From Elsinoe ampelina (Eukaryota), in the NCBI GenBank assembly GCA_010093995.1, contig ML992503.1, forward strand, positions 1,231,234 through 1,295,233: DNA of 64,000 nucleotides, written 5' to 3'. Position 1 is the stretch's first letter. Every line of letters starts with the position of its first letter. Made by a program: the position numbers and the translations under genes. The notes beneath the pieces were generated by a model. The model was not told the origin of the DNA, did no database searches, and worked only from the letters and a program-made list of their open reading frames with translations. Of this stretch, positions 43,887 to 64,000 are shown one piece after another.

Positions 43887-44633
43887 ATGTTATCAAAGAC
43901 GATACTACTATCAACCCTCTTACCCTCTGCCCTGGCTGTCTCTCTCGCAGATTTCGCCCCTCGCGCATCGAATCTGCCGTCAGCATGCCAGTCGATATAC
44001 ACCTCGAGCATATCAATGTGCCAGCCGTCGGACTTTGAGAAGCAAAAGTGCAGCAAAGACTGCGTCAACGCACTCAATGCCCTCCGTGCATCAGTCTCGA
44101 AGGCATGCAAGGGCGTGTCAGGTCACAACATCCTGGCCGCTTTGATGGCCGGCCGAGGTACACAAGATCTGTGTCCCAACGCAGGTGATTACGATGATGA
44201 CGACGAGGACAAGCCTACCACAACTCAAGCATCGCCCCCTCAGACGAGTACAACTCAAGCACCGCCGCCGCCATCGTCGACCTCGACTAGCACTACCCAA
44301 GCACCACCGCCAAGCACAACTCAGTCTAGCTCGGAAGACAGCAGCTCAAGTCAACGAACTACTGTGGTCTTCACCAACACAGTTGTACCTCAGCCTAGCG
44401 ACACCGCTGTACCGACTAGCATCGAGTTCGACACTGCCACGCCATCAGACGTCGCAGCTACAGCGTCAAGAACATCCAGCAGGGCCGCTGCCGCTACGCA
44501 GAACAGTGGTGGCAGCCCATTCGGCGGTGTGGAGCCCGGTATGGAAGCTCTACAAGGCGAAGCAGGCCGAGGTACACCCGAGATGCTCGCCCTCGCTGTG
44601 GCAGTCGTCGGCGCTGTGGTGCTGAGGTTATGA
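43887..44633 (+). CDS. Secreted/GPI-anchored cell-surface protein with a 6-Cys N-terminal domain
   Basis: Signal peptide MLSKTILLSTLLPSALA, Cys-rich domain (C..IY...I..C...DF....CS..C), S/T/P-rich stalk, GGSPF and a hydrophobic C-terminus. Confidence 0.8.
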   Translation: MLSKTILLSTLLPSALAVSLADFAPRASNLPSACQSIYTSSISMCQPSDFEKQKCSKDCVNALNALRASVSKACKGVSGHNILAALMAGRGTQDLCPNAGDYDDDDEDKPTTTQASPPQTSTTQAPPPPSSTSTSTTQAPPPSTTQSSSEDSSSSQRTTVVFTNTVVPQPSDTAVPTSIEFDTATPSDVAATASRTSSRAAAATQNSGGSPFGGVEPGMEALQGEAGRGTPEMLALAVAVVGAVVLRL

Positions 44634-45120
44634 GACATATGGGAGGAAGGACAGGGGAACGATGGGAGGACAATCAAAGAAGTCGGAGGAGGAAGGGCGG
44701 GGTCAGGGAGGAACCGAAACCAAGTAGAGGAGGTAATCACTCGGCCTCAAGGTCGTTGCCGAGCACGGCCAGAAGGCGCCGTTGCTGGAGGGGGTGTCAT
44801 TTCTCTTTTTTCGTGTCCAGTCATAGATGACGGACTCTTATACCCATTGCGAGGAGGCTGGATGTCATAGCGAGAAGCGTGAGGGAGGTTGGAATGGAAC
44901 GTCATGATCAAGTTTGTGCCTTCAACGTTATTCGTGTGTGCTCTGCTGGTCATCGATTGCACTGTACTCATGTTCTGGTGTGACCCAACCGCGACTTCTC
45001 CGCTTCCATCAAGGGAATTTGCTACCTGCCAGCTCATCAACTTTCTGCATAATGACCGACCCACAAGTGATGTGGCCACCAAGTGCGGACGAGATTTTTG
45101 ACTTCCAATCCCATGGCTAA

Positions 45121-46611
45121 ATGGCGGTCTCATCACGGCTTCGCGTCTCTGCCACACTGGATTGCCCTTCTCGACGCCTACTGAGCTGCCATGCCAGGCC
45201 ACGACTTTATCATCGGAGCAGCTCCACCAGCCATAGTACGAGACATCGGGAAGAAGACCGCTTCCCCAACTTTGCCACGGGCGACTACTACCCCGTCCAC
45301 CCAGGCACGCTCTACGACAACCGCTACAAAGTCGTAGCAAAACTCGGTTTCGGCACCACCAGCACTGTCTGGCTAGCACAAGACCTTAAGCGGTACCACT
45401 TCCCATGTCCACCACCGCGGCCAACCCCTGACCAATCCCAGACGCCTCGATCCCCTTCACTGGCTACGACCCAAGTACACCGTCCTCAAGTTCCTCACCG
45501 CATCTGCTTCCTCGAACGCCACAGTGGTAGGAGAGGTAGCCTCTTCCAACCAGCTCTCCACGGGGAACCCGTCTCACCTCGGGAAGCAGTACCTCCGTCT
45601 CCCTTTGCGGACTTTCGATCTCTGGTGGAGCGGGAGGAAGTACCCCTGCCTCGTCCAAGAGCCCATGCGTGAGAGCCTGGGGAGTTTCCGACGACATTTC
45701 CCGGATCGCTGTGTACCTCGTCAACTAATACGGCCGGTCTTGGAGATTCTTCTCCAGGGACTGGATTACATGCATAGATGCTGCGGCTTGATTCACACAG
45801 GTACTTCCCTTTGCTGCATTGGCTGCCGAGGCAAGATTGACATGTGTAGATTTGCATCCGGCGAATATCCTTGTTGGCATAGAAGATCCAGCGATCATCG
45901 AAGAGCTGCTTCAGAGGGTGTCGTCGATATATGCCGGGAAATCATCCGACGAGCATCCGGTGTATCCTTCTTACACATTCGGTGCTCTGAGAGGTCCCCC
46001 GTCTCATCCTAAGATTGCGGACTTTGGCTTGGCGGTGGATGCGAGGAAGAAGCATACGCATGCTATCCAGCCGGATCGATTGAGGGCGCCCGAGGTGACG
46101 TTGGGGACGGAGTGGGATGCTAAGGTTGATGTGTGGAGTCTGGGGGTGATGGTAGGGATTACTAACGGTAGCTTGTACAGTGATCTAATGTGTTTGCAGA
46201 TGTGGGATCTGCTCGAGGGTCATCCACTGTTTGAGGCGCGAGAAGATGAGACTGGGGAGTACTCGGCTTTGCTGCATTTGCGGGAGATGCATGCCTTGCT
46301 GGGGCCGCCACCGCGGAGTTTGCTGAGGAGAAGTCCCTACGCTGAAGTTTTGTACGACGATAAAGGTTTATGCCGTTCATACCCTTGCTCCTCCGGTGAA
46401 CATGATACTGACTAAATCAGGTCTGCTGCGAGATGCACCTTTGCCGGTCGAAGAGAAGGATCTTGCCAACACAGTTACCAAGTTGGATGGCGAAGACAAA
46501 GTTGAGTTTTTACGCATCATGAGGAAGATGCTGCAGTGGGATCCCGATGATCGTCCTTCTGCCGCTGAGCTTTTGGAAGATCCCTGGATGAAATCATTGA
46601 GGGCGTCTTGA
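45121..46611 (+). CDS. SRPK-like (CMGC) Ser/Thr protein kinase, 5 exons
   Basis: Introns 45393-45441, 45801-45849, 46152-46199 and 46366-46420. Motifs YYPVHPG, KLGFGTTSTVWLAQD, VLK, HTDLHPAN, IADFG, RAPEV, DVWSLG and RPSAAELLEDPW. Confidence 0.9.
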
Positions 46612-46860
46612 TAGATGTACTTCCAACAGTGCTTGATGTTAACGTGGACCCTACGCTCTTCGCTCTTCTATAGTAAGTATCGTTCATATGTTTCATATCA
46701 TGTCCGAACATGAATTTGGGCTACTGCCACACACCCATATGACGCCAAAAATCAAGGTCACGTGCCCCCTGCCTCTCCCCTTCCCAACAAGTGCGACCAA
46801 AACAACCACCCCAAGAGCAAAAAGACCGCTCCCCTTTTTACTCACCTTCTTTTTCGACTT

Positions 46861-47018
46861 GGCCATTTTACCAGGGCTTCGTCCTCAATCTACCGCATCG
46901 CACATTAACTTTGTGGTGGTCGGATAGAGAGAGTCGAGGTTTGAACCCGAGGTCTTCGCACTGGGTCAGTGCTACGCCGAAGTTAGGAGCAGTCATAACT
47001 CGGCCACAAGTGCTTTTT
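46861..47018. ncRNA. Candidate structured non-coding RNA (unassigned)
   Basis: Five closely packed hairpins in an intergenic gap, followed by a T5 run; no family recognised (see findings). Confidence 0.35.
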
Positions 47019-47357
47019 CAGGGCAAGTGTGACTTGGTTTCACAGCTGAACTGACTGAGCCACGCTTCGAAGTCGGCGGATGTTCGCTGGGGGAGGGGGC
47101 GGGTGGGAAATAATATATAGGCATGGCTTTTGTGTAGGGGAGTTGGTGGCATGCGAACGCTGGCAAGGTGGAGTGCGTGCATTGATTGCGTTTGAGGTGA
47201 GGGTTTGGTGTGGTATATGGATAGATTTCTCATCTTGGACTTTGCACACCATTGCACCTCAACAACATCACAAAATCATCCAATCTCCCTCAAACATCTC
47301 GAGAGGGATCGCACTATATCTACAGACCCACTGTATCAGTCAGCAGGTCGTCCCAAC

Positions 47358-48056
47358 ATGTCTACTCCCAAGAAGCCCGCCACTTCGCCCGCCACTTCCA
47401 CCGCGCCACCGTCTCCCCTCGCACCTGGACCGCGTCGCGTCGCCATCTCAGCCTTTGACGTCCTTGCCTTCTTCAAGCGTTCGATCGACCGCAACATCTG
47501 TCCCTGCAACAATAACGTGGTAAGTCCGCTTCGCACCTGTCCTCTTCTCTTCGCCGTCCTCGCGATCGCAGCCCCGTGGGAAGAGCTTGAAAGATTCTGT
47601 TGGGAAATGCCATTCGAGATCACAGGACTAACGCTTGGAAAACGTCAGAAGAGCTGGCGGAGAAGAAATATCACAAAGTTGTCACAATCCAAGGGCTTCA
47701 TAATCTCTTCCAACGCGATCACGGAATAAAGAGGCAAGGTAGACTACAAAGGCTGACGGGCCCAGTCCTACCACTTCTACCACCCCATCACCCTCCCCGT
47801 CCCGGGCGGACTGACAAGCTGCGCCGACCTACATGGTGTGCTCGCTAGTCAGGGGAAGTATTGTCCTCCTGCGGCGATGTGTGTGTTCTGTAAAGGGGTG
47901 AGGCCGTTGAAGCCGAAGCTGTGAGACATGGGAGGGGAAAAGGATGGGAATTCGCTGCGAAGGACAGAAGGCGGGAGTAGGGAGTAGACAAAAGGGGTGT
48001 AGCTGGAGGTGGAGGGCATGTGGGTTTGTGAGAGGTGTGGGGGGAGAGGTTTGTAA
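47358..48056 (+). pseudogene. Possible degraded or orphan gene with a terminal CxxC...CxxC exon interrupted by stops
   Basis: ATG at 47358, donor GTAAGT at 47520, branch/acceptor signals at ~47626-47648 and ~47811-47848. The frame from 47850 reads MCVFCKGVRP..*..*..*..WVCERC. Confidence 0.3.
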
Positions 48057-48254
48057 GGGAGGTATTGGGCTGGAGAAACATGAGTGGAGGACGAGCTGAT
48101 GGAAACTGCGGAGGATGGTAATGAGCACGTATCAGAAACCTTCAATGAAGATGACAGAGTTTGCCTGCTGTCATTGTTTGCATTTGAGTCTGGTCGTCGT
48201 AAAAGGCCACGGTTTGGTGAGCCTGCCTCAACGTCTTGCCACTACCATGAGCGA

Positions 48255-49065
48255 TCAGAAGTCCTCCAATCCATCGCTGTCGCCATCGCCGTCGACGTCC
48301 ATCCCGTCCATCTCATCATCGTGCATGTTGTTGTTCCTGGTACGACGGCCCTGGATAGCCTTCTGCTTGCCTTTCGCGTGCGGTTTCTGTTTCTCTTTGC
48401 GCTTCATGACGCGAAAGGCATGAAGGTTGCCCATGACTTTGGTCGCTATGGTGGGTGCCTTGGTGATGAGATCGGCGTGCTCGAACTTGAATGCCTTGGC
48501 CCTTTTCTCAGGTGGGTTGGTGAAGCCGCGAACAATGAACTTCTCGAGACGAGAATTCGGCTTCGCCTTCTTCAAAGTTTCTTCGAGAAAGGGGAGGTCA
48601 GAGTTGAGCGGGGCTTTGACGACATTGTCGAACTTGTCGATTAGATATTGGACGAAGGTGTCGCTGTCAATTTCGTCACCGAACAGCATCATGTCGAGTA
48701 GGGCTTTGCCGATTGCTGGGCTGTTCTTCTGGTAGTTGGCGAAGACGGTGGTCACCTGGCCGCTAATCGCCCATTCGACAAACGAGGCGGCGGAAATCAC
48801 ATCGTGGTTCCTGACATCGATATGCTGGACGGCGATGTTCGCGTACTGAGGGCAGACTTGTACAAGCTTGGAGTGGTAGATGTATGCTCCTCCCTCCCTG
48901 GCGGAGATGAGGACCATGGAAGAGTAGGCCCTCTGTCTGTGCTTTGTCAGTGGTGTTCACCTCAGGGACTTCACGATGTAATATCACATACAGGGTCGCC
49001 CTGACGCGAGCGCTCACAGCGGCGTCGCTATCCACAGCGTTCATGATGGTGAGTTGTGAGCTCAT
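48255..49065 (-). CDS. Diverged BTB/POZ-like domain protein, 2 exons
   Basis: Intron 48937-48991 gives ..ATL|QRAYSSMVLISAREGGAYIYHSKLV...ASFVEWAISG, resembling the fungal BTB pattern (F.VH..LL / F..FV.WLY.G). Basic then acidic C-tail. Confidence 0.55.
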
Positions 49066-49391
49066 GATTGATGTTGATCTGGTTTCCGAGTGGCGTCTGT
49101 ATGTTGTCGCGAAGTGGAAAGGCAAACTTGGGAGCACGAGGAAGCTTTACCAAAATCGGTCTGAGGTCGCGTTTGTCCTTCCCATATTCTGATTGGCTCG
49201 CGCAGGAAGAAATGAAGACTTGCCGTTTGTCATCCAATAAAGGTAAACAGCTGTGTTTGTCGCGGGACAGAGGTCGGCCAGGCAAACGGAAGCATGTGAC
49301 AGATCCACCCACCTTGGGGATCATAAAACTCGCATCTCGTCCTCCTCGTGTGCTCCGTCCTTCACTCACTTTCGATTCTCACATCACCAAC

Positions 49392-50197
49392 ATGTCTGAT
49401 CCCGCAGATACTCAGCATCAAAGTCACGGACTTGGCGATGACTTCCAACAGATGTCGATCAACTCTAACGAGCAGCATGAGCAGGATCAAAGCAGTACCA
49501 TTTCCGAACAGAGTTCTCCGATGTTCACACCATCCGCATCTGATGACCAGTCCGACCCTGGTAGTGTCGAGAGCGACCATACGATAGAGCTCAACGGTGG
49601 AAACAACAGGAACGACATGATGACAGACATTGGGAATAAAATGCAAGTCCTCTTCTCCGCATGCCAACACACTGCTGACCTGCTCAAAGGGCAAAACAGA
49701 ATTCCGACATGGTGCTACTCCTCTGTGGTCATCCGCACCAAGCGCAATGGGTTCATCGCCACGTCCTGGTCAAAGCTTCCGCGGCGCTGGAGAGGCGACT
49801 TGCGGACATGGCCCCGTTCTCCACTCTCGAGCTGAGGTGTGCTTACACCCGTTTCGAAGTCGGTGCGTTTATCGAATGGGTCTATTCAGGCAGCATCGAC
49901 GAGACAATGAGCATGTTCGGACCGACCGAGGACAATATCGTCGGCAACACGGAGCGCGTCTGTGGTCTGATGCATCTCCACCGCTTTGCCTCGGACGTAG
50001 AGTGCGAGGAACTGATCAAGGTGGTGGAGGTGATGCTGTCGGAGGCTGGTCCGCTGACAGGGGCTGCCAAAATGGATGACCCAACTGTCATCGACTTTGG
50101 CGATGCACTCATGGTGGTCCCAAAGGCTCAGCGTGACAAGTGGCCAGGATCAGGACTCAAGAGAGGGTTTGACAACTATTCGGCTGAGGAGCATTGA
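49392..50197 (+). CDS. Diverged BTB/POZ-like domain protein, 2 exons (GC-AG intron)
   Basis: Intron 49643-49689 gives ..NKM|AKQNSDMVLLLCG...WVHRHVLVKAS...GAFIEWVYSG...LMHLHRFA....CEELIKVV. Confidence 0.65.
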
Positions 50198-50619: not shown

Positions 50620-52634
50620 ATGACGACTGTGAGGGACTTCCAGCCACCCGAGCGGGTCATGACGAACATGTCTGTCCAGACAGACCCCGCTGGACCTGTG
50701 CCGCGCCGAGGCACAACTTCAACTGCCAGACGGAGAGCAAGTATTATATCCTCCAGCGATTCGGTCAACTCGGCCATCTTACGAAGGCGAATTGCAAGAT
50801 CCAACACAATCAAGACCTATCATGACCCGGACCGGCCAAATTGGAAACCTGGTGCTGAACCTGGACTGGATACGACCAAGGAGGAAGGCGAAGACGAGCC
50901 CAGATTGACCGCTCTGTACGAACAATGCGCCATTCATATTACAGATGTCTCGGAAGAGCATATCTTCACTCAACAAACAGATAACGACGACTTGAAAGAT
51001 GTCTTGAACGAGCCACGGCCGGATGACATGCCACTTCGTTGGATCAGTGTCAATGGCCTATCCTGGGATGTCATCAAGATCCTCGCAAACAAGTACGGAC
51101 TCCACAGACTTGCGGTCGAAGACATGATCAACACTCGATCTAGGACGAAAGTAGACTGGTACTCAGATCATGCTTTTGCCATTCTGACTCTGCAGAAGTT
51201 AGTCAGAATCTGCACTCATCAGGAGGAAGGCGACTGTGACTGTGATAGTTGTGACAATGACATTGAAACTTCCGGAAAGATACAAAAGAGCGGCAAATCT
51301 GGTCTCATGTCATGGGTATCTTATCTGGGAGGCCGGTCCGACGGAGATGTCCTTCCTCAGTACCAAGAGACAGCGCCACACAATACTGTCAAGGCTCACA
51401 ACTCGACATCTGCCGAAGCTCCTGTCAAGTACATCCGGACGTTACACAGATACGAGGGGGCCCATAATCCAGAACACACCGCTTTCATGGAGAAGCACTC
51501 TGCGCTGGCGCAGGAGAATCTCGTGGTCAGCGTAGAGCAGGTAGCCATCTTCCTCATGGCAGACAATACTGTCATATCTTTCTACGAGCATTCTGGACCG
51601 GATGTCGAAGCTCCCATTCTGGAACGTCTCAATAGTCCGGAGACTATGCTTCGACGGAGCTGCGATGCTTCTCTGCTGATGGAAGCCATTATTGACACGA
51701 TTGTCGATCTGGCTCTTCCGATCAAAGACGCCTATAACAAAGCAAGAAAGGAGATGCAAATCGACGTGCTCACGAATCCCGATATCGAGACCTCCAAAAG
51801 TCTGTACATCTTCAGCGAAGAAGTTGACATGCTCCAGAACCTCTTCAAGCCTATCGTGCACCTGGTCAATGCACTGAGAGATCATCAGATAGACCCTTTA
51901 CATCAGCAGCCAAACGGTCTATCTGCGCGGAACTCCAGTCGGAACCTCCTCAGTCCACATGGGACCATGGGCAATCCTAACAACCCTTCCACAACCGAGC
52001 AAGAGTTCATGCATCGCAATTCTGCTGGACCACAGCGACGACCTCTGAATAGATCGCAGACGTCCACGTCTGTTGTCATATCACCACTTGCACATACTTA
52101 TCTTGGAGACGTCCTCGATCACTGTCTCACACACATCCAGTCCCTCGAGCAGATGGATGCATCTGCCAACAACCTATCTTCGTTGATCTTCAATACCGTC
52201 GGAGCGAATACGAACAACTTCATGATGATCCTCGCCCTAGTCACAGTCTTCTTCAGCCCTCTCACCTTTATCAGCGGTTATTTTGGTACGTATTTCTCCT
52301 CATGTCTTTAAAAAATGTATCGCTGACACTACTAGGAATGAACTTTGAGCGATTCGAAGCGATCAAGGTGCATTCAGATGCCTTTTTCTGGCTCGTCGCC
52401 CTACCGAGTGTATTTGTCTTCATGGCGGCAGTCAGCGGCAACGTCATATGGGCCACGATCAAGACATGGACAGTCAAAGCCACCATCAAAAAGATCAGGA
52501 AAGCCAAGAATCAAAGAAGAGCAGCTGGCTTTGGCGCTATTCAACCCGTCCCTGGCAGTGTGGCTAAGAGTCGAAGCAATGGGTTCGGCAACTTTAACGG
52601 AGCTGCGAAGCGAACCAAGACGACTGGCCGATGA
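50620..52634 (+). CDS. CorA-family Mg2+/divalent cation transporter
   Basis: RWISVNGLSWDVI, GLHRLAVED, RTKVDWY, VSVEQVAIF and YLGDVLDH. Intron 52286-52335 restores PLTFISGYFG|MNF (GMN signature). Confidence 0.92.
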
Positions 52635-52820
52635 CTAGTAGACGCGAGAGGGCAGCACTATGCCGAAGAAAGTGGACAGGAAGAGTCGGACAGTGACGAC
52701 GAGCCACAAGAGGCGCAAGAAGATACCCCGCTGCTGAAAAAGCACCATGATTGATATGGCGTATGTACTTTTGGTATAGATACAGTATATGCATATTATC
52801 TCCCTTGCACCCAATCATCA

Positions 52821-53711
52821 TCATATCCTCGCCTTGATCGGGCTTAAACCAAACGTCGTCCAGAACTCCCTCGTGTCATAGCATCGTCCTAGCTCTTCCA
52901 TGCTCCGCGGCAGGCCCTTGACTCCCGTCTCATTCATCAACTCAAACACCCACTTGGCCTGCTTACTCGGCTCCTTTCCCTCTCCCACGTCCGCCCATCC
53001 CACAAACAACGACCACCAATCATACACAAACCCATCCGTCAACATCCACCTCTGCCCATGACACCTCTTACACTCATCCTCCTCCCGATCCGCCTCCCAC
53101 GCCTTCACAACCGCCACAATCGCCCTTCCCACATCCAACCCATGGATCATATGCAACGACTTCTTCGCCTTGACCTGCTCCTTCGTCATCGCCACCCTCT
53201 CGACCCAATTCTTCGGCTCCCTGGACCCTCCCCATAGCCCGCTCAAGTTCAACACAATAGCTCCTCGGCCGAGGTACTCCTCCTCTGTCAACGCCCTGGC
53301 GTTATCCCGATCGTAGGGAGAGTAGCGATTATACCACGGGCCCTCCTCCCCTTCTTCGCCAGCTGCGTACGGGCTCCCCACTTGCCAGATCCCGGTGCTC
53401 CCCAGCACGATCCAGCGCACTGTTTCCTGCACGCGGGGATGTGTCTCGAGGTAAGCGTTGACTAGCTTTGCGGCCTCCTCGTTGCTCTTGACGGGGAAGG
53501 TGATGAGCACGTAGCGTGCGGCTGGCAGGGTGGAGAAGTAGGATTGATCTGTCGCCGAGGGGTCGTACTTGAATTTGAGGGAGGGGGTGGAGTCGACGGT
53601 TCGTCCGGAGGTGGTGGTTAGGGCGTGGGAGAGGTGGGCGTCGCGGAGGAGGGGGAGGAGGAAAGTCGCGGTCCAGCCGGCGCCGAGGATGAGGAGGTCG
53701 ACTTGTTGCAT
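52821..53711 (-). CDS. NAD(P)-binding Rossmann-fold protein (atypical SDR/epimerase-like)
   Basis: ATG at 53711; LLILGAGWT, VLITFP, LGSTGIW, LNLSGLWGG.R.P and SLHMIHGLDV.RAI. Confidence 0.8.
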   Translation of the reverse strand: MQQVDLLILGAGWTATFLLPLLRDAHLSHALTTTSGRTVDSTPSLKFKYDPSATDQSYFSTLPAARYVLITFPVKSNEEAAKLVNAYLETHPRVQETVRWIVLGSTGIWQVGSPYAAGEEGEEGPWYNRYSPYDRDNARALTEEEYLGRGAIVLNLSGLWGGSREPKNWVERVAMTKEQVKAKKSLHMIHGLDVGRAIVAVVKAWEADREEDECKRCHGQRWMLTDGFVYDWWSLFVGWADVGEGKEPSKQAKWVFELMNETGVKGLPRSMEELGRCYDTREFWTTFGLSPIKARI

Positions 53712-54024
53712 TGTTGAGGGATGGAGGGGAGGAAGGGGGTTGGAGAGGTGGAGACGGGTGGAGGTGATGGGTCGGGTGGGGCGGGGCAAGCTTGGGGGGA
53801 GCTCTTACGGAGGCCTTTTGGGGGTCGCACCTTCATTTCACGACAAGGGAAATCATGTATCGACTTTTTGCGCCGTTGAGGTCTGAATAGAAGACTGGAT
53901 GAATAGACACGATATACCAATACCATAAACGCCATGTACAACTTCGAAACCATCCGGGCTTCCACACATCCCCCTCAGACCTGAGCAGCCAGTAGGACCA
54001 CGGACTGTCCCACGATTGATGCAT

Positions 54025-55785
54025 TCAAGCTGCATGTGTCCGCAAGACTCGGTGATCCGCACGAACGTCGTCCACCACAGCGTCCCAATTCAGGGCCGTC
54101 CGACGCCAAGGGCTATCTTCACTGCTGTCCCAGATCTGTTCCAACAGCTCTTCCTTCTCCTCCGGCATGTCCCGCCAGGAGAGTGCTCCAGGATGTCTGT
54201 AATCCATCACCATGTCATTGCGTCTGTACCGAGACTCTATCTGAGGGCCTTGCCCGCCTCTCAGTCGATCAGTCACTTCGACGTGATACCATTCAGCATC
54301 CTGTTCGTGGAGGTCGTCGGGTCTCCTGGATATCCACACACGGACTGGGAACATACCGATTCTGGTGGGAAGGGTCCAAAAGTCTTCGCCAGGACGAACC
54401 CACATGGCGACGCAGAACTGGCCTCGGTATATCCTTGGTAGCTCCGGGATGCCGAGCTCTTGGTCTTCAAGCACCACAAAGTCGGGGACTCTGCCGAACA
54501 GCTCGTCCATGATCTTGAGGTCGTATCGGACGTGACGGCAGGTGAGAAGGGGTGGTGGTGAACCCAGCTCACCCAAGCGGCGAAGCACCCCTGGGCGGCG
54601 AATGTCGACGTCCGGTCCTGATTCCGAGCTGTCCGAGTCGCTGCTGGACTCATCAGGGGGAGTGATAACGCTGTCGGCCCCATCACTGTCTGAGCTCTCC
54701 ACGCACAATATCTCGCCCGAACCCTCGCTGTCAGTATCCATGCGCTCCTCGAGACAGGTCTGACAAAGGAATTCGCCAGAATCACTTCCGGACTCTGAAT
54801 CGTTCGCATCGTCCACGAACGCCCCTTCCTCGTCGATCGTATGACATGTCCCGCATATGAAGGCTCCGACTGTAGGGTCGATTTCGATATCGCCGTCTTC
54901 GCTGGACTCTACGTTGTCGTCGATCTCCGTCTGCTCTTCGTAACAGGTCTCACAAAGCCGTCCGCCAGAATCACTTCCAGATTCAAAACCGTTCGCACCG
55001 TCCCTCAACCCTTCATCGACAATGGCGTGGCAATTCCCGCATGTTGGGCCATCAATGGAACTGGATCCGACACTTTCGTCTTCAGCACCGCTTTCATCGT
55101 CGCTAGACTCTCCTTCTCCGTACCACCCGATGATCGAACGACAAGTTCCGCTTACGAGAGCCCCAGGTGGAGGGTCGAAGCCGAGTTCGATTTCCTCTTC
55201 GCTGGAGTCTGAGCCTTCATCGATACCGGCACAGGTTCCGCATATCAATCCTGTGTTACCAATTCCCCCGGGGAGTCTACCGTGGCTGCTGGAGTCTTCA
55301 CTGTCGTCAGACTCCTCGTCACTAGCGCCAAAGATCCGGAAGTCTTCGGGTAGTAATGGCGTCTGAGGTCGAATGGTGCGAGTCCATCGTGGGCGAGGCG
55401 ATTGAAGGATGGCCTCTGGGTCATCGGAGCTGGCTTCACGGATGTCGGGTTGTTGCAGAGGCGGAAAATGGACTCTGCCTCTTCGAGCTGGTATTCCTGG
55501 TGGACTCTGTGGTGGGATCCTGGCGGGCAGCAATTCGGGCAGAATGGGTCCTGACCGGGGTGGGCTCGGGGGAGCCGCATTTCGGGCTGTCAATGGCGTC
55601 TGCAGTGGTTCTTCTGCAGCAGGCGAGGGTACCGCACTGCTCTGGACACCAGAAGTAGCACCTGCGGCAGATCGACATCCCCTGCGTGGGTTACGGCGAA
55701 CACCACTGGTCTTGGACATGGGCTGGATAGCAGACCTCCGTCGTGCTGCGGCCTTTGCCTTCGTTTTGGACTTTTTATTGGCCAT
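54025..55785 (-). CDS. Orphan protein X1: basic N-terminus, acidic CxxC repeats, C-terminal shared 'X' domain
   Basis: Long intronless ORF, likely start MANKKSKTKAK at 55785. The C-terminal ~170 aa align by eye with X2 and partly with X3. Confidence 0.75.
   Translation of the reverse strand: MANKKSKTKAKAAARRRSAIQPMSKTSGVRRNPRRGCRSAAGATSGVQSSAVPSPAAEEPLQTPLTARNAAPPSPPRSGPILPELLPARIPPQSPPGIPARRGRVHFPPLQQPDIREASSDDPEAILQSPRPRWTRTIRPQTPLLPEDFRIFGASDEESDDSEDSSSHGRLPGGIGNTGLICGTCAGIDEGSDSSEEEIELGFDPPPGALVSGTCRSIIGWYGEGESSDDESGAEDESVGSSSIDGPTCGNCHAIVDEGLRDGANGFESGSDSGGRLCETCYEEQTEIDDNVESSEDGDIEIDPTVGAFICGTCHTIDEEGAFVDDANDSESGSDSGEFLCQTCLEERMDTDSEGSGEILCVESSDSDGADSVITPPDESSSDSDSSESGPDVDIRRPGVLRRLGELGSPPPLLTCRHVRYDLKIMDELFGRVPDFVVLEDQELGIPELPRIYRGQFCVAMWVRPGEDFWTLPTRIGMFPVRVWISRRPDDLHEQDAEWYHVEVTDRLRGGQGPQIESRYRRNDMVMDYRHPGALSWRDMPEEKEELLEQIWDSSEDSPWRRTALNWDAVVDDVRADHRVLRTHAA
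54752..55045 (-). repeat. Internal tandem duplication (~190-bp period) in X1 encoding CxxC-acidic-CxxC units
   Basis: acaggtctgacaaaggaattcgccagaatcacttccggactctgaatcgttcgcatcgtcc versus acaggtctcacaaagccgtccgccagaatcacttccagattcaaaaccgttcgcaccgtcc. Confidence 0.8.
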
Positions 55786-56109
55786 GATGACGGACTGATT
55801 CAACCAATGCGTTGTGGAAGAGGAGCAAGTCGAACTTGTGCGCGTCCATGAGATAAAACCTCGGCCATGGGACACGGTCACAAAGAGATGCATTCCTGGA
55901 TCTACCCTCCTCGAAGACAAAGAGCTGCATTCGGTCCTGGCTGAAAGCGCAATATCACTGTTCACGGTTTAGCTCGTCCGATCGTCACTGGAAGATGTGG
56001 TCCCAAAGGTATCGACAAAACTGGCTCTACACAATGTTCGCTGCTCTGCCTGACTATCAGTTTAAGCCACTGAAGCCAGTCTCCCGGAAAGTAACCACGT
56101 CAATTACCC

Positions 56110-56874
56110 TCACAACTCCTCCGTCTCCCCCCTCGTCTCCAATATCACACGTTTTTCCTCCCTACAATCATTCAAAAACTGCTCCCACGTCTTTTCACCT
56201 CTCGTACTCCGCAAGACCGACTGCGCAAACATTTCCAACCGATCCTTCTCCATCTGCGACGCACGCATCCACGCCTCCCCACCCGGATCTCCCGGCACAA
56301 ATGGTAGCCTCTTAGAGTCAATATCGTCATTCCCAGAGTCAGGAACCACACCCCTCAAAGCATCCGTGATCTCCACCGTATATATGATCTCGCCCTTGAA
56401 ATGCGACACCCAGAACCGATAAGGGTACATGGTCTCCTGAGGGTAGTTCTCCAGACTATCACCCGGTCCAAGCCACACGGGGACGCAGTCCAGCCCGTTA
56501 CGAGGCCCACTGGTCAGACGTGCCTTCATGTCGACTTGGAGGGTGAGCCTCCCAGGCCGACCAAAGAGATCGTTCAGGCTCTTGAGGTCCTGCCGTACGT
56601 GGTACCGCTGGGCGGATTTCTTCCTCCGCTTCATGACTTTCTGTGGTACGACCAGTTTACTGGGATCTTGGGGTTTCTTTACAGGCGAGACTTTGCCGAG
56701 GCGAGGCGTGGCTTCGATGAGAGCGATGGCGGGGACTTGTGGTGGGGTCTTGGGGGGCTCGGCGGGTGCGCTGCTGGCGCTGGCGCTGATCGGTCGGGAC
56801 ATGCCGGGGATTGAATTGGCGATTCGCTTGAGCTGTTGGCGGCGCTTTTCCATTTGGGCTCGGGTGAACATCAT
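56110..56874 (-). CDS. Orphan protein X2: short basic/Pro-rich N-terminus + 'X' domain
   Basis: Likely start MMFTRAQMEKRR at 56874; NLS-like KRRKK; domain beginning YHVRQDLKSLNDLFGRP. Confidence 0.7.
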   Translation of the reverse strand: MMFTRAQMEKRRQQLKRIANSIPGMSRPISASASSAPAEPPKTPPQVPAIALIEATPRLGKVSPVKKPQDPSKLVVPQKVMKRRKKSAQRYHVRQDLKSLNDLFGRPGRLTLQVDMKARLTSGPRNGLDCVPVWLGPGDSLENYPQETMYPYRFWVSHFKGEIIYTVEITDALRGVVPDSGNDDIDSKRLPFVPGDPGGEAWMRASQMEKDRLEMFAQSVLRSTRGEKTWEQFLNDCREEKRVILETRGETEEL

Positions 56875-57330
56875 CTTGGTTGTTGTGCTCGACGTGGCCG
56901 GTATGTTTTGAGGATGAAGCGCAGCGGCCAATATGCGGGTATGATATTGCTCTCGTCCACATGCTGTAGATAAAGAGGTCGACTTGGCCGGATGCGGTGG
57001 CAGTCCTTTGTCGTCGCTGGCCACAATAAAGGGAATGCGGTAAAGCACAAAGGATGTGTCTCCGACGCATGTGTCTGGTCTAGGGCCTGGTCGTCCACAC
57101 TCTACCGGTGCAGAGCGAAACCACATGGTCCGGGAAACCGCTCCAAAGGGGGCGTTACATATGCTCGCCCCGGGTGTTCTGGGAGGAATCAATGCATTGA
57201 TGACACTTCATTTTGATGAAAAGATTTGAGAACGTTAACGCAATTACGAACGAGCATACCAGGATAAGCCCAGTCGAAGACACTTCCTCAAACCGGCCCT
57301 TCTGATAAACACCACAGCTGGCGTCTTCCT

Positions 57331-58686
57331 CTACTTCTTCGAGCTAGACCTCGTCGTGCGAGTGCTTGTTTTCTGAACTGGCGCGGCTTTTTTGCCCACA
57401 GACTTGGGAGTCGTTGACTTCTTGCCGACCACTTTCTTGGCTGGTGTCTTTTTGATGCCAGTCGGCTTCGCTGCAGGCTTCTTCTCCGGCGTCTTCTTTG
57501 CCGGAGCTTTCTTTCCGACACCCTTCTTCGTTGCAAGCTTCTTTGGCGTAGACTCCTTTGGTACAGGCTCCGTCTTTTCTGACTGCTCTTGGTCAGACAA
57601 GTCCTCGACCTCGACAGCTTTCCGTGTTATGCTAGGCCTGGCGATAGAAGTGTCGATGATGCCCATGGATCGATTCCAGAGAGCTCTGCCGTCAGCGTCT
57701 GTCAAGACACCAGGTATTTTACCGGCCCCAGGCTTGGTCACGGTCTTCAAGATACTCTTTGGTCCGGACAGTACCAATTGGCCACCCGGGCGTTGTTCAA
57801 AGAGGAATTCCTCGACCGGCGTATCAGGCCCTTGGGGAGCCAGAGCGTCAGGGTCATCTCTCCAGTTCGCCTTGGCTTCGACAGACAGATTCTCGAAAAT
57901 GTTACGCGGGATAGGGTTGGCGCGATGGCCTCGAGTTGGACTGAACACGATGTGGTCCGGCAGACCTGGCGAGTCAAGTGATTGGTCAAAGACATATGTG
58001 GACTTCCCGTCCAAGCGCTGGTAGTATGCTGGGTCGTAGACGAAGGGAAAGTGCTCGTAGTACTTGGGCTCTTTGAACGGTCCACTCTTGAATCCGTACA
58101 CAAGATGTGTCACTTCCCAATAGTCGACATTGTTGGGCGTAACATACTCGTACTTCCAGTATCGAGTGAACATCGAAAACGCGATCGGAAGCAGGTCGAA
58201 ATCGACGTTGATCAATTTACAATCGAATTCTCGCTTGTGGAAAGGCATGTTCTCTTGGAATCTGATTGATTCGGGACCGAGAAGATTGTTGGCGGGAAGA
58301 CCGCTGTAGAAGTCACGGGCCTCGAACTCGGGAGGTGGTCCATACAGGTCGGTCAGCGGTTGAAGGTCAAGGCGGCGATGGTAAACCGGACCACGGTTGG
58401 TGCTGAAACCCAGGCTGGTCCACGACGGGCCATGATGGCAATCGTTCCATCTCAGATACCCTTTGTGTTCGGGAAAGCCTTTGGCAGTGGAGTAGTTCTT
58501 GCCGCTACCATGATCGTAACTCAGGAAGCCTTCGACGATGTTGGAAGTAGGCTTGTTCCAAGCATCAGACACGCGTGTGATGAGACCAGTGGAAGTGGGG
58601 GGCTCTAGCGGGATGCTTGCTTGCTTGCCGCCCTTGCTTCCTGATTTGAAAACCATGGCCAATACATCTGCAGCGTTTTTTGACAT
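57331..58686 (-). CDS. Orphan protein X3: diverged 'X' domain + histone-H1-like Lys/Pro/Ala-rich tail
   Basis: 451-aa ORF; YHRRLDLQPLTDLYGPPP and DYWEVTHLVYG; tail KKAPAKKTPEKKPAAKPTGIKKTPAKK. Confidence 0.75.
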   Translation of the reverse strand: MSKNAADVLAMVFKSGSKGGKQASIPLEPPTSTGLITRVSDAWNKPTSNIVEGFLSYDHGSGKNYSTAKGFPEHKGYLRWNDCHHGPSWTSLGFSTNRGPVYHRRLDLQPLTDLYGPPPEFEARDFYSGLPANNLLGPESIRFQENMPFHKREFDCKLINVDFDLLPIAFSMFTRYWKYEYVTPNNVDYWEVTHLVYGFKSGPFKEPKYYEHFPFVYDPAYYQRLDGKSTYVFDQSLDSPGLPDHIVFSPTRGHRANPIPRNIFENLSVEAKANWRDDPDALAPQGPDTPVEEFLFEQRPGGQLVLSGPKSILKTVTKPGAGKIPGVLTDADGRALWNRSMGIIDTSIARPSITRKAVEVEDLSDQEQSEKTEPVPKESTPKKLATKKGVGKKAPAKKTPEKKPAAKPTGIKKTPAKKVVGKKSTTPKSVGKKAAPVQKTSTRTTRSSSKK

Positions 58687-59476
58687 GGTCGTAATCCTCT
58701 GATCTTGTTCGGTGGATGTCAGCTTGAAATTGCAGAGGAGATTGGGATATTATGAAGTGGAAACTCTGGGAGTACAGATTCTTGACCGGAGCCAACCTGG
58801 ATGCGTTCAATTTCCAGACAATGGGAGCTGGTCACATCGCCGCATGCGGAAGGCGCTCTCGCTGCAAGCGTTTCTACCGGATCAAGAAGCTTCGTCAGAC
58901 GTGGTGCTAATCTACTCGGGCGCACTCGGTATTCTAAGTCATCTCCGCAATGATATGTTGGGCCGGGAACAAATAGTCGCCTTGTAGCATGACGATTCAA
59001 AAAGCCCAGCATTCCTTGGTCACGTGACCAGAGCGTTCCGATACTCAAGTCTCTGCAAGTCCCAATACGACCCGGAACATCGACCAATTGGTGGGAGAAA
59101 CACCACTCAAGACCACTCATGAATAGCATCGTCTTTGTCTCAACGTCAAGTTCATTATTCCATGAAGACAAGAGTGCTGGAATGAAAGCGCACACGACAG
59201 AGCGTCCAAAGGTCAAAGAAATCTGATTCTTTGTGATACTGGGTTGACAAGGCATTTGTCACGAAGATTAAGCTCCAAGTACAGGCAGATGAGACATTGA
59301 GCGCTTGTCTGGAAGCCTCATAATGTGACCGACAACTTCCTCTCTCGATATTTCTTCTTCTCAAGCTTTGGTCTGCGTACACCTTTGCTTCCACCACAAA
59401 CGTACGCCACCTATACCCATTTCTCTTTTCAACCCCCTTCCACTATTACCTGGGGCTGGTCCCCACACACTTCACG

Positions 59477-61876
59477 ATGGCTGCAGTGCTTGAACGATTA
59501 TGCACCTACGCCAAGGCTATGAGCGACATCTACGCCTCTGATAGGCGCCCTACTGAGGTTGCGCAAGTCAGAAACACTGCTGCTCTGCTTTATCTGGCTT
59601 TCCGCAACGTACGCAATGACCCTATCGTCGGAACCATGCCAATCGTCCGCAATGCTCTAGCGGTTCTTCACGGACGCTGGGTCCGTCACTACCTGGCCGC
59701 CGAGCATTCCGACGATCGTCCAGAAGGTGATCTCATGGGAGAAATCAGGGGAACCTTGTGGGATGTCCAGACCATTGCCAATTATCCTGGTAATGCTCGC
59801 ACTCTGCAGGTACCCGATCACCCCGATGACCTTCTTGCTTACAATAACCTTCTCAGTTCCTGGTACGGAGAGAGGCCCTTTCCCAGTCTGTCCAATTGGA
59901 ATGCCCTGAAAGATTCCAACACTACCGAGATGCATTATACCAACATCACGCTGGTTGCTCTCAACGCTGCTCTCGACGCGGTCGACAAGGTGGGTTTCGC
60001 TGGTGGGGACCCGCTGGCGGACATACTTGGTGAGTCCAGCCCTAGTCCTACTACCAGCAATCCTCGTCCAATCGTTCGGATTGATGGCAACGGCGCCTTC
60101 CGACCCATGTCTTCCATAGGCGCTCGCACCAGTTTTAGATCTACGGTGGAATATCCAGCTGGACCGGCCTTCCAAGCACGGTCGCACCATGAACGGCTAT
60201 CCGCCCAGATGATCCTCGATCTCCTTAAGCGCCTGCCTTGCGGAGAAGCAGCTCGGTTCGACAATCAGGTTGACGTCCTAGACGATGTCGTCGTCTTCCA
60301 AGGTATGGAGCTGCATGCTCCGTTTACGTCCGCCGACTTCTGCTGTGAGCCCTGCCAGCATGGCTTCGACGAGCTCGACCATTTCATCCAGCATTTGCAC
60401 CGTCACCATTTCTTATCAATCTCGCGATCATGCCGCTGCCAGATTTGCCTGGTCGTTTATGGCCAATACAAGTCGCTGGCACCATCTCTGCTGCACCACA
60501 TCCGACAGCAGTGGGAGTCCGAGCTTTCCAATCGTAATGGTCCTGCTATCCCTGCTATTACCAGTTTGCCTGGTCTTCCGACAACAGCTGACGACGGTGA
60601 ATATGTGGCGGCAGAAACCAATGATGCAGAGCTCGCATCGAACGTGTGGTTGCAGAACTTTGCATTGGAGGCTCTATGGGGCGTGACTAAAGGTATCTAT
60701 GGCCGCGACGAACCTATCGATCCTATGCTCCGGATCGTCAACGCTGCACAGCTTCGCGAGATGTTCAACTTCCAGCCCACGAGTGGTGCCGCGGTCAACT
60801 CCGCCGGACAGTTTGATCCCGCCCTGCATGGACCGGGACCCACGCCGCCGGAGTCTCGTGAGGCGACTCCTGAAGCTGATCTTACCGCCAAATGGTCCAA
60901 GATTAGATTCGATGAGAATGGCATTCGTATTGATGAGGATGAAGAGTACGATGCTATATTCAACGAATGGGTCAAGATTCCGGACGATGAGGACACTATG
61001 CTTGGTGCTGAGGATAATCCTCCTTTGGACTTCATCGAGCCGACTGAATCCACCGAAGAGCCAGCGGAGCACGTCGGACAGCCTGCAGAACCCGTTCGAC
61101 AGCCTGCAGTACCCGTAGCACAACCCGCAGCAACTATGGCAGCGCCTACAGCACCCGTCGTAGAGCCTGCCATGGAGCTAGCACACGAGGTCTATGTGCG
61201 TGGCCCTCGGCTCTTCGATATTCACGGGCGAGGAGATGGCCCGGAATACGAACGAGATCTTGCCGCCCGCATAGCAGCATTCAACGCCCAAGGTCATCCC
61301 CAGGAACAGGTACAGAATCAGGACGAAGTGAACTTTAATGAGTTCGTTACATTCCCTCCGCACGACGGCAGGAGCAGAAGCGCAACACCAGCTTCGAGTG
61401 TGGACAAGGATGGTGACTCTTTGATGAACGATTCAGATGTGCCAGGCGTCAATCTTGTTGACTCGGACGGAGACTCAGGTATGAGTGATGCGGGCAATTT
61501 TGCCATCGCCGACTCTGACGGCGACTCACACATGAGCGGTCTGGAGGATGTCAGTGCTGCAGGAGCTGTAGACTCTTCCGGTGACGATAATGACTCTGTG
61601 ATGAGTGACCCTGATGCCCTCGAGAACGCCTCTTCCGACGACGGTACAGTCCGCATGCCAGCTCACAGCCAGATCCCTATCGTCATCTCCTCCTCGAGTG
61701 AGGCTGGTGACTCCGACATGTCTTCAGACGATGTCGATGGTAGTGACATTGATGGTGACTCGGACATGACCGACGAGTCTGAGAGCGAGGCTGACGCTGG
61801 AGCTATTGAGAACGATAGCGATGAGTTCCAGGACGACGATGACAAGTTCAAAGCTGCTGACATGAACATGCGATGA
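59477..61876 (+). CDS. Orphan protein Y1: novel N-terminal domain, C2H2-type zinc finger(s), acidic repetitive tail
   Basis: 799-aa ORF; CEPCQHGFDELDHFIQHLHRHH followed by CQIC...LLHHIRQ; repeated DSDGDSxMSD units in the tail. Confidence 0.75.
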   Translation: MAAVLERLCTYAKAMSDIYASDRRPTEVAQVRNTAALLYLAFRNVRNDPIVGTMPIVRNALAVLHGRWVRHYLAAEHSDDRPEGDLMGEIRGTLWDVQTIANYPGNARTLQVPDHPDDLLAYNNLLSSWYGERPFPSLSNWNALKDSNTTEMHYTNITLVALNAALDAVDKVGFAGGDPLADILGESSPSPTTSNPRPIVRIDGNGAFRPMSSIGARTSFRSTVEYPAGPAFQARSHHERLSAQMILDLLKRLPCGEAARFDNQVDVLDDVVVFQGMELHAPFTSADFCCEPCQHGFDELDHFIQHLHRHHFLSISRSCRCQICLVVYGQYKSLAPSLLHHIRQQWESELSNRNGPAIPAITSLPGLPTTADDGEYVAAETNDAELASNVWLQNFALEALWGVTKGIYGRDEPIDPMLRIVNAAQLREMFNFQPTSGAAVNSAGQFDPALHGPGPTPPESREATPEADLTAKWSKIRFDENGIRIDEDEEYDAIFNEWVKIPDDEDTMLGAEDNPPLDFIEPTESTEEPAEHVGQPAEPVRQPAVPVAQPAATMAAPTAPVVEPAMELAHEVYVRGPRLFDIHGRGDGPEYERDLAARIAAFNAQGHPQEQVQNQDEVNFNEFVTFPPHDGRSRSATPASSVDKDGDSLMNDSDVPGVNLVDSDGDSGMSDAGNFAIADSDGDSHMSGLEDVSAAGAVDSSGDDNDSVMSDPDALENASSDDGTVRMPAHSQIPIVISSSSEAGDSDMSSDDVDGSDIDGDSDMTDESESEADAGAIENDSDEFQDDDDKFKAADMNMR

Positions 61877-62703
61877 TCTTAACGATGGGAAAAGGTATAG
61901 TATTGACGTGCGATGCACCGCCCTTGGTGCTGACTGGCCTCTCTTGATTCAGCTGGCTGAATCTAGAGGCGAGTCTGGTAGGTGAGAAAGTATCTTCTAT
62001 CCCTTTTTGCTAGTATCAATTTCCTCAAACACCTATTGACATATGATTCCCCCCCTGATTTCCATTCGTGCTGCACTGCAATTCTTTACATATCATCCCA
62101 TTCGTTTCGGTTCTGTGTCTCGAAGTGTCCACTGGAGTGCTTCCTCCACGTAGTCAATGCCTTTGAATCCACCAGACGAGCACGAGCCTCGGCCAGGCCG
62201 TGGTTTAGTCTTTGTTTCTATGTGGAGAGATGTTCAATTTCGACCTTTCGCAAAGAGTCGGTCCTTCCGTCGATTCCCAAGCCATGGTAGCTTCCTCACT
62301 CAATCACAAGCTCTGTTTAGGATTCTGAGACAGTGGTTGGTAGTGACAAAGGGCTACACAAAGCGTTGTTCCACCATGACAAAGGTGCTATTCACATAAC
62401 AGGCGCTCACAGATCTCATCAAAGAATGTTTGCACAGCAATGAAAGAGAGGCGAGACAATGTTAGTACGGTGAAAGGCTCGCACAAAGAACAGCGGTGCA
62501 AGAAATCTCAGGCAGCTTGGGATTTTCTGTTTCACTTCATCCATATAAGCTGACAAGATGTCGCTATCAACGTCCTTCCTCTCTCCAAGCTCTGGACCAC
62601 GTACGCCTCTGCTTCCGCCCCGACAGTACGTAACCCCATCTATCCTCTCAACCCACGACAACACTCTCTCAACACTCTTGGGCCGGTCCCATCATCTTCC
62701 GTC

Positions 62704-64000
62704 ATGTCATCCATCTGCCCTGTGTGCAACACTCAACATGGGGACGTCGATACGATGGTAGCTCACATCATGCAGGAACATGATGCCAACCGCCCCTTCT
62801 TCTGCACGGTATGCCCTAGGCACTTCAGCACAGCCGCAGCCCGTAACAAGCACGAAGTCGAGCACAGCCAATCCTCCAGCTCTGACTCTAGCAGCAGCTC
62901 TGGTAGCAACAATGCTTCTTCAGGCCTCTCGTCGGTCCACACCACCCCTGAGCCACAGCCAGGGTTCATGGGTACGACTCGTGCTCGAGCGCTCGCTGAA
63001 GTCTTGTCGCGCATTGCACCAGCTCTTCCTCCGAACCGTGGGTTGATTCCTCACCACATTGATTCACCGCAGCGTGACGCCCTGGACGCTGCTGCAAGGA
63101 CCTTGGCCGACATCTATGGTTTCCCCCACGTTCTTCGAGTCCAAGACTTGGATCAGCACATGGCCACACTGGATGAGGCTCTGCTCCAAGTCCGTGAAGA
63201 CCCGATGATTCGTACCATGCCTGCCATCCTGGACCGTCTTGCCCGTCTGCACGGCCGATGGATCAAGCTCCGTCAACTCCTTCTGACTCAGCTTGGCCAT
63301 GACTTCCACTCCACCAGGGGTGACATCCGCGACATTATGGTCGAGCTCAGTGCGATCGCTCGTAACCTGGACTTCAACAAAGATGATGTCGACGACGAGT
63401 CTGATGATCTCGCACAGTACGAGTTCACTCTGTACACCATCTACTTCTTCCGCATCATCTTCCTGGACATGCCGGAAATCGCCACTGGGAATGCCGGTGT
63501 CGCTGAGACGCTTGCTGACGCCGCACCCGGTGCCGAGCAGTATGCCGGGGAGAACCAGATCGACGAACAAGGTGAGTTTGCTCCTGACCCATTCGCTGAC
63601 GCTGTAGTTCATCAAGCTGTAGCCGAGCCTGCAGCCGACCTCATGCCGACCCTCACAGCGGGATTCCGCCCACAGCTCCCTGACCGTATGGACACTTTTG
63701 GGGACCTAGAACCCGTGCTTTTCCGCGTCAGGTCTGCGAACCCGACCACTGTTACCAATCAGAGGGATCCCTTGACCGCAGGTATGCTGCAGTGTCTGCT
63801 CGCCGCTTTGCCAAGGGCGCAGTACGAACAGTTCCGGAACCAGCGGGAGTGCATGCACGCTCTCTACCGCGCCGACGGGCTGCTGCTCCATGTTCCATAC
63901 ACCAACGAGCCGTTCGCCTGCGACGTCTGCCGAACCGGCTTCCCTGACCTTGAGCACTTCCTCCGCCACATGCACGGCAACCACATGGTTGGACCTACCC
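62704..64000 (+). CDS. Orphan protein Y2 (paralog of Y1) with extra N-terminal C2H2 fingers; runs off the window
   Basis: Manual translation from ATG 62704 is stop-free to nt 64000: MSSICPVCNTQHGDVDTMVAHIMQEH..FFCTVCPRHFSTAAARNKHEVEH...VREDPMIRTMPAILDRLARLHGRW...FACDVCRTGFPDLEHFLRHMHGNH. Not in the ORF track because it lacks a stop. Confidence 0.8.
   Translation, partial: MSSICPVCNTQHGDVDTMVAHIMQEHDANRPFFCTVCPRHFSTAAARNKHEVEHSQSSSSDSSSSSGSNNASSGLSSVHTTPEPQPGFMGTTRARALAEVLSRIAPALPPNRGLIPHHIDSPQRDALDAAARTLADIYGFPHVLRVQDLDQHMATLDEALLQVREDPMIRTMPAILDRLARLHGRWIKLRQLLLTQLGHDFHSTRGDIRDIMVELSAIARNLDFNKDDVDDESDDLAQYEFTLYTIYFFRIIFLDMPEIATGNAGVAETLADAAPGAEQYAGENQIDEQGEFAPDPFADAVVHQAVAEPAADLMPTLTAGFRPQLPDRMDTFGDLEPVLFRVRSANPTTVTNQRDPLTAGMLQCLLAALPRAQYEQFRNQRECMHALYRADGLLLHVPYTNEPFACDVCRTGFPDLEHFLRHMHGNHMVGPT

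Follow-up and report, generated by a model that had tools for sequence, protein, structure and literature searches.

The subject of this analysis is a pair of gene families, here called X and Y, that lie side by side at the right-hand end of a 64,000-nucleotide (nt) stretch of contig ML992503.1 of Elsinoe ampelina (the window). Three X genes are read leftward, on the minus strand: X1 (54025-55893), an open reading frame (ORF) of 622 amino acids (aa) whose likelier start is M37; X2 (56110-57126; 338 aa); and X3 (57331-58686; 451 aa), for which an identical gene model is annotated in the source genome. Two Y genes are read rightward, on the plus strand: Y1 (59477-61876; 799 aa) and Y2, which begins at 62704 and continues past 64000, the window end cutting the gene and leaving 432 aa in view. 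A spacer of exactly 790 base pairs (bp; 58687-59476) separates the start codons of X3 and Y1. All ORFs were called with the standard genetic code. An initial annotation of the locus had described this layout, with 'two or more' Y genes of which two are in view, and the ORFs do lie where it placed them; it went further in reading the cluster as an orphan island of co-amplified, co-regulated partner families resembling genetic conflict loci, and it is this reading that the evidence below supports only in part.

The X proteins are united by a domain of ~170-200 residues, here termed the X domain, which occupies residues 447-622 of X1 (54028-54555), residues 170-338 of X2 (56113-56619; the part modelled) and, in a divergent form, residues 95-300 of X3 (57787-58404), in each case on the minus strand. 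X1 and X2 share this C-terminal region at 29% identity over 164 aa (E-value 1e-13), and pairwise comparisons of X3 with X1 and X2 are marginal (E 0.02 and 0.003). X3 is counted as a distant X member because it has the same ordered motifs as X1 and X2, has a BLASTP match (E 3.7e-7) in an X domain from E. australis and falls among X domains in a tree; judged by these sequence features, its membership is confirmed. The signature carried by all three proteins reads, in order, H-x-R-x-[DW]-L ... [FY]-G ... P-x-R-x-M-F-P-x-R-x-W ... E-[VI]-T-[HD] ... G. In a 13-row family alignment (alignment A5), R73, E88 and T90 do not vary, and H12, G25, P57 and G95 hardly vary; this alignment leaves out three fused two-domain gene models (P0007, P0009 and P0017), the inclusion of which misplaced X2.

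Neither sequence nor structure ties the X domain to anything described. In X1, X2 and X3 no Pfam family reaches its curated cut-off, a Pfam scan of 13 X-family members found no family common to them, and a sequence-profile search of the PDB with the X domain gave 0 matches at E ≤ 10. In a protein atlas the best score of the X domain (0.83) is at chance level. An AlphaFold2 model of the X2 domain, built on a 13-sequence alignment, is compact and alpha/beta, with a predicted local distance difference test (pLDDT) score of 81.3 and a predicted template modelling (pTM) score of 0.78. Foldseek searches with this model returned a best E-value of ~1 and template modelling (TM) scores of at most 0.17 against the PDB and at most 0.19 against viral models. 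This structural blank may reflect either a new topology or a flawed model.

All named relatives of X come from a single fungal family. A search of 1,835,955,588 representative proteins with a profile built from the three X domains gave 10 matches at E ≤ 0.001, nine of which look like true X proteins. Seven of these are named and all belong to Elsinoaceae (two each from E. batatas, E. australis and Sphaceloma murrayae and one from E. fawcettii); E. batatas itself is placed in Dothideomycetes, Myriangiales, Elsinoaceae. The remaining two are Logan records, one of which clusters with an E. australis protein. P0014 was rejected as a relative: this protein of 1038 aa contains ~15 near-identical 65-residue repeats and was matched 15 times on profile positions 130-171, probably by chance. 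A metagenome scan with an X3-subfamily alignment yielded 146 pattern matches and no relative, a word-indexed protein search with X2 among targets of 185-592 aa gave no match, and tblastn of the window found no X or Y copies beyond the five. Literature on Elsinoe genomes and effectors and on orphan or lineage-specific genes contained no description of either family that we could find. To the extent that an orphan island was claimed, the confinement of X relatives to Elsinoaceae bears the claim out.

Fused gene models and consecutive accessions elsewhere in the family indicate that X genes also stand in tandem in E. batatas, E. australis and S. murrayae. The E. batatas protein P0007 (KVT40_000393, 877 aa) is X2 run into X1, across an X2 stop codon that is present in this window, and its first 251 aa are the X2 ortholog. 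The E. australis models P0009 and P0017 likewise fuse neighbouring X genes and, with an adjacent 'short' gene, bring the number of X genes standing in succession to at least four. X paralogs also bear consecutive identifiers: CAC42_2443/2444 in S. murrayae, and PSK43067/43068 and C1H76_5676/5677 in two assemblies of E. australis. PSK43067 and TKX22043 of E. australis each fuse two X genes, and the former is deposited as 'DNA-directed RNA polymerase II subunit rpb1', a name without any support here. Locus tags of E. batatas were also tried as a test of adjacency and discarded: four genes that lie within 10 kb in the window are tagged 1140 (the core neighbour), 393 (X2 and X1), 664 (X3) and 356 (Y2), so the tags are not positional.

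In a maximum-likelihood tree of X domains, those of X3 type from E. batatas, E. fawcettii and the window form a group with support of 95/95, to which E. australis is added at 89/87; domains of X1/X2 type stay unresolved, with branches of 1-2 changes per site. Because X3-type domains of several species group together, the split between X3 and X1/X2 is older than the sampled Elsinoe species. The description of both families as old tandem duplicates thus stands, for X by this split and for Y by the 28% identity between Y1 and Y2 set against 90% between Y2 and its ortholog.

Outside the X domain the three proteins are built differently. X1 consists of a basic N-terminus, a proline-rich stretch, a long acidic region with CxxC...CxxC modules (~300 residues, net charge -59) and the C-terminal X domain. 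The cysteine modules (54739-55251, minus strand) follow the pattern CG[TN]C ... C[EQ]TC and include two 85-nt DNA copies 189 nt apart; module number differs between X1 of this genome and E. batatas P0007. Pfam matches of X1 to cytochrome c7/c3 (E 0.027-0.05, below cut-off) are caused by CxxCH strings and are probably meaningless. In X2 a basic stretch, KRRKK, precedes the X domain. X3 ends in a lysine-rich tail resembling histone H1 (residues 351-451; 57334-57636, minus strand) with 29 K+R and 9 D+E, a net charge of +20, and the orthologs of E. batatas and E. fawcettii have this tail too. It matches the Pfam family HC2 (PF07382) at E 1.4e-6 and 29 bits, where the cut-off is 40 bits, and no Linker_histone match was found in X3 at E ≤ 1 that would indicate a linker-histone globular domain.

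The Y family combines zinc fingers of the C2H2 type with helical and acidic regions. Y1 and Y2 are 28% identical over 324 aa (E 5e-21), and the finger residues are kept in alignments of 324-423 aa. Y1 has a helical N-terminal domain, a C2H2 finger pair and a long acidic Ser/Asp tail, and Y2 has an N-terminal C2H2 pair, a Ser-rich linker, a helical domain and one or more C-terminal C2H2 fingers; in other words, Y2 and its ortholog P0006 carry two finger pairs and Y1 the C-terminal pair only. The finger residues of Y2 are C5/C8...H21/H26, C34/C37...H50/H54 and C406/C409...H422, and those of Y1 C290/C293...H306; the motif C-x2-4-C-x12-H-x3-5-H is found in the Y proteins. The finger region of Y1 (residues 288-345; 60338-60511, plus strand) has C-x2-C-x12-H spacing and aligns with a Y2 finger, and its acidic tail (residues 451-799; 60827-61873, plus strand) holds 86 D+E and 19 K+R, for a net charge of -67, and contains DSDGDS-type repeats.

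In Y2, zf-met is the only Pfam family above its cut-off (22.1 bits against 21.2), other finger models falling just below; in Y1 no Pfam family reaches its curated cut-off. Profile matches of the Y fingers in the PDB are to PRDM9 and Zif268-type proteins (E 3.6e-5 to 1e-3), and in the protein atlas Y1 scores 0.92 to unnamed clusters, along with generic C2H2 leads. A structure model of Y1 has a pLDDT of 40 (three sequences), and its residues 1-125 alone are moderately confident, as a helical bundle. The ortholog of Y2 is E. batatas P0006 (526 aa, 'C2H2-type domain-containing protein'), identical at 390 of 432 positions (90%). It was also the single match of the Y alignment in a word-indexed, length-limited search of a 5.8-billion protein collection. 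No match was returned by a word-indexed search with Y1 residues 1-430 among targets of 439-1399 aa, no E. batatas ortholog of Y1 was found in word-indexed searches, and a metagenome scan with the Y alignment gave 493 pattern matches and no relative.

None of the five X and Y proteins contains a membrane segment (19-residue Kyte-Doolittle mean ≤ 1.31) or, by a hydropathy heuristic rather than a dedicated predictor, an N-terminus resembling a signal peptide (best 10-residue mean ≤ 1.53), and by these measures they are predicted to be soluble. The claim that both families have features of nuclear proteins is sound as far as the charged composition goes, which is present; a nuclear location may reasonably be read from that composition.

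The upstream regions give no sign of shared regulation of the two families. An 85-nt block lies upstream of both Y genes at the same distance to the start codon (Y1, 59352-59435, ~-125 to -42 from the ATG; Y2, 62576-62654, ~-128 to -50; both plus strand), with a score of 43 where 200 shuffles reach no more than 30 (z 10.3), and is conserved far better than the 28%-identical Y1 and Y2 proteins. No common motif was found between X and Y in any of the six X-Y upstream pairs (z ≤ 2.5). Set beside the strong block shared by the Y genes, this blank leaves the view of X and Y as co-amplified and co-regulated partners unsupported.

Comparison with E. batatas locates most of the change outside the folded part of X. 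Whole proteins are identical at 77% for X1 (606 aa, part of P0007), 86% for X2, 86% for X3 (443 aa, P0008) and 90% for Y2, and the X domains at 90% for X1 (171 columns), 88% for X2 and 96% for X3 (179 columns). Because domain identities of 90, 88 and 96% stand against 77, 86 and 86% for whole proteins, fast change falls mostly in disordered parts and the X domain is under constraint. The adjacent core gene (52824-53711, 296 aa) is 96% identical to its E. batatas ortholog (283 of 296 positions) and, as one gene, forms the whole baseline for core divergence. Together with the 77-90% of the island proteins, this value marks the window as coming from a close relative of E. batatas. At a greater distance, X3 and E. 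fawcettii P0016 are 37% identical over 226 aa.

Assembled sequencing runs give a view of the transcripts. In the run labelled 'X3' (a run label, not the gene), contigs 53853-56728 and 56784-59330 are colinear with X1, X2, X3 and most of the spacer, with no joints. The RNA label of this run is a guess, but the run carries a GT..AG joint at 52284/52335 in the CorA gene and so behaves as RNA. Since these contigs are colinear with the genome while the same run splices the CorA intron, an intronless structure of the X genes is supported, and the earlier statement that the genes are apparently intronless holds for X, to which this support is limited. The CorA-type transporter intron (50 nt, GT..AG, 52285-52334) is spliced in contigs of runs X3 and X6, so that its 563-aa ORF continues into the frame at 52302-52634. 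Over gene X3 the contig extends 644 nt upstream of the start codon, to 59330, ~146 bp short of the Y1 start codon, and the part over 58687-59330 is either a very long X3 leader or a separate transcript. A 178-aa ORF in the spacer (58719-59255, minus strand) looks non-coding, its guanine-cytosine (GC) content at third codon positions (GC3) being 0.44 against 0.56-0.76 in all other measured ORFs; GC3 fails to tell real from antisense frames at this locus. Y1 and Y2 have almost no contig cover in these runs, which is evidence neither of silence nor against co-expression. From a DNA run of organism C, low-complexity pieces of 34-70 nt were all that aligned, too little to bear on presence or absence.

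Two further runs, X4 and X6, reveal a second haplotype of gene X3. They are identical to the window across ~3 kb of core genes and ~1.1 kb of X1/X2 and then diverge from 57213 to at least 58369, with 35 single-nucleotide polymorphisms (SNPs) and 10 indel rows. A contig of these runs spans from the identical into the divergent part, and because one contig bridges both, the divergent sequence is an allele of X3 rather than a paralog. The X3 coding sequence differs by 17 synonymous and 12 nonsynonymous changes, four of the latter clustering at codons 203-212 (within 57700-58080), just past the E-V-T-H..G motif. At residue 206, three states (E, K and T) occur across the two haplotypes and E. batatas. 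From these counts, which come from one locus, two runs and few strains, the second haplotype appears to be old and under overall constraint, and it may owe its existence to balancing selection, introgression or local recombination history.

GC content is even across the island, at 0.51-0.57 throughout; a GC scan found no AT-rich tracts in it, no Rfam family matched there, and in 52000-64000 there are no inverted repeats, direct repeats being limited to X1 and the Y1 acidic tail. No transposase, tyrosine-recombinase or reverse-transcriptase family was found in any of the 26 scanned ORFs, the right flank past 64000 being outside the window. The absence of mobile-element marks noted in the initial annotation is thereby supported within the window. 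To the left stand ordinary core genes, including mitochondrial DNA polymerase gamma, DNA polymerase alpha subunit B, Nha1, the CorA-type transporter and a family-2 glycosyltransferase. A Pfam family was found in 13 of the 21 large left-flank ORFs; the other eight, with no Pfam family at E ≤ 1e-5, lie within 10182-13303, 20021-25101, 34500-35693 and 43842-49835, and uncharacterised genes are thus interspersed among the core genes.

Taken together, these data favour, at a probability of roughly 60%, two unrelated Elsinoaceae-restricted families, each grown by old local tandem duplication, that abut head to head by chance and encode soluble, probably nuclear proteins. We infer the nuclear location of X and Y, their binding to nucleic acid and the independence of the two families. 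The X proteins would serve as adaptors on chromatin or nucleic acid; their conserved working part would be the folded domain, and their fast-evolving charged tails would supply bulk affinity. The Y proteins would be finger-guided, activator-like DNA binders. Several known systems offer partial likenesses. Taxonomically restricted (orphan) tandem families of fungi, the subject of a review (PMC12684174), share with X and Y a one-family range, local duplication, fast divergence of disordered regions and deposition as 'hypothetical protein'. X differs from them in having a conserved folded domain with a confident model, in being at least as old as the sampled Elsinoaceae genera and in having core genes, not a repeat-rich compartment, as its surroundings.

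Classical C2H2 transcription factors (Zif268/EGR1-type; zf-C2H2 PF00096, zf-C2H2_4 PF13894) share with Y1 and Y2 the canonical paired fingers and activation-like acidic tails. Unlike them, the Y proteins have mostly sub-cut-off Pfam scores and a family-specific helical region of ~250 residues between the finger pairs that has no known relative, and Y1 lacks the N-terminal pair. The C-terminal 100 residues of X3 are Lys/Ala/Pro-rich in the manner of linker histone H1/HC2, but with a sub-threshold score and no globular domain the likeness is compositional.

That X and Y are instead partners in a conflict-type locus (a drive/antidote, allorecognition or genome-defence system), co-amplified and co-regulated from the X3-Y1 spacer, is in our estimation unlikely, although a number of observations speak for it: the divergent X3 and Y1 with a short untranscribed gap between them, lineage restriction together with protein identities of 77-90% against 96% for the core neighbour, the opposite charges of the X3 and Y1 tails, and a sharply local X3 haplotype with clustered amino-acid changes. 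Strong allelic divergence is what a conflict locus would lead one to expect, and such divergence is seen at X3, in two runs. The X3 haplotype and the head-to-head layout carry most of the weight that this reading keeps. Spok drivers are single large proteins with kinase-like and nuclease-like domains, wtf drivers are multi-pass membrane proteins, and HET-domain and NLR allorecognition genes pair repeat-type sensor domains with a HET, NACHT or NB-ARC domain. X and Y resemble these Spok, wtf, HET-domain and NLR het genes in being restricted to a lineage, in forming arrays of paralogs and in including one gene with strongly diverged alleles; in a comparison made from sequence alone, they lack the characteristic domains and membrane segments of these systems. 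HET, NACHT and NB-ARC gave no Pfam match at E ≤ 1 in the five proteins and no kinase or nuclease family appeared in the X/Y scans; by domain content, nothing here is typical of drive, allorecognition or genome-defence genes. The lack of a common X-Y upstream motif likewise stands against partnership, as do the unequal copy number (three X against two Y) and the presence of at least four X genes in E. australis and at least two in S. murrayae, from neither of which a Y relative turned up in a limited search. The 17:12 ratio of synonymous to nonsynonymous X3 changes signifies constraint and not runaway diversification. A more specific and still less probable version would make X3 and Y1 a chromatin 'poison/antidote' or recognition pair, in which the Y1 tail neutralises or chaperones the X3 tail, X3 alleles are kept by balancing selection and the X domain is a new fold; the handling of the X3 tail proposed there is likened to that of linker histones by acidic disordered partners.

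Other explanations fare no better. Host-directed effectors that act in the plant nucleus and are delivered without a classical signal peptide could account for lineage-restricted, fast-evolving proteins with charged disordered regions and DNA-binding-type motifs whose relatives occur in a genus of plant scab pathogens. On the other hand, none of the five N-termini resembles a signal peptide by the simple heuristic above, a fungus's own nuclear proteins typically have C2H2 fingers and lengths like the 338-799 aa seen here, and the locus tags cited in the main text of an effector-mining preprint do not include that of the X3-like gene of E. fawcettii; we regard an effector role as very improbable. 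The same may be said with slightly more force of an island that derives, as cargo or as a relic, from a Starship or another large mobile element, or from a domesticated transposon. Such elements carry a captain tyrosine recombinase or transposase and terminal repeats, and here the even GC, the want of AT-rich tracts and inverted repeats and the 26 ORFs free of mobile-element families all count against one, while X arrays in several genera suggest vertical descent; in its favour are a lineage-restricted block beside core genes and a right boundary that lies outside the window. It is also scarcely credible that spurious genes occur among the ORFs, Y1 being the foremost suspect. The exact Y1, X1 and X2 proteins, alternative starts included, are absent from a protein collection that does include X3 and, from the same genome, the 296-aa neighbour, and the E. 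batatas proteome has yielded no Y1 ortholog; against this, Y1 is open for 799 codons and aligns to Y2 with its finger residues kept, and X1 and X2 have orthologs inside the fused P0007. Because the E. batatas orthologs of X1 and X2 sit in that fused model, the missing records are best explained by differing gene models.

The reading of two independent, abutting families has its own weak points. Nuclear location and DNA or chromatin binding are read from composition and finger motifs, and to call X and Y independent is to argue from links that were not found, word-indexed searches being the only ones made for Y relatives elsewhere in Elsinoaceae. The head-to-head arrangement of X3 and Y1, with ~146 bp between the end of the RNA-like contig at 59330 and the Y1 start, would fit a bidirectional promoter. 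By the statistics of the tool a total blank in the structure search is unusual, and the X-domain model could be flawed. A further difficulty comes from X3, where 35 SNPs, plus indels, fall in ~1.2 kb against 0 in ~4 kb of flanking genes; local allelic divergence this strong is not what one expects of an ordinary housekeeping-type regulator and is more in keeping with conflict or recognition loci.

If the two-family reading is true, X is an old, constrained and structured lineage-restricted family with an undescribed domain that has no relative in sequence or structure, and it would belong to the Elsinoaceae, crop-scab fungi whose nuclear biology is almost unstudied. Fused or misnamed public gene models, including the one labelled RNA polymerase II subunit rpb1, could then be corrected, and X3 would be flagged as a gene of unusually deep divergence within the species.

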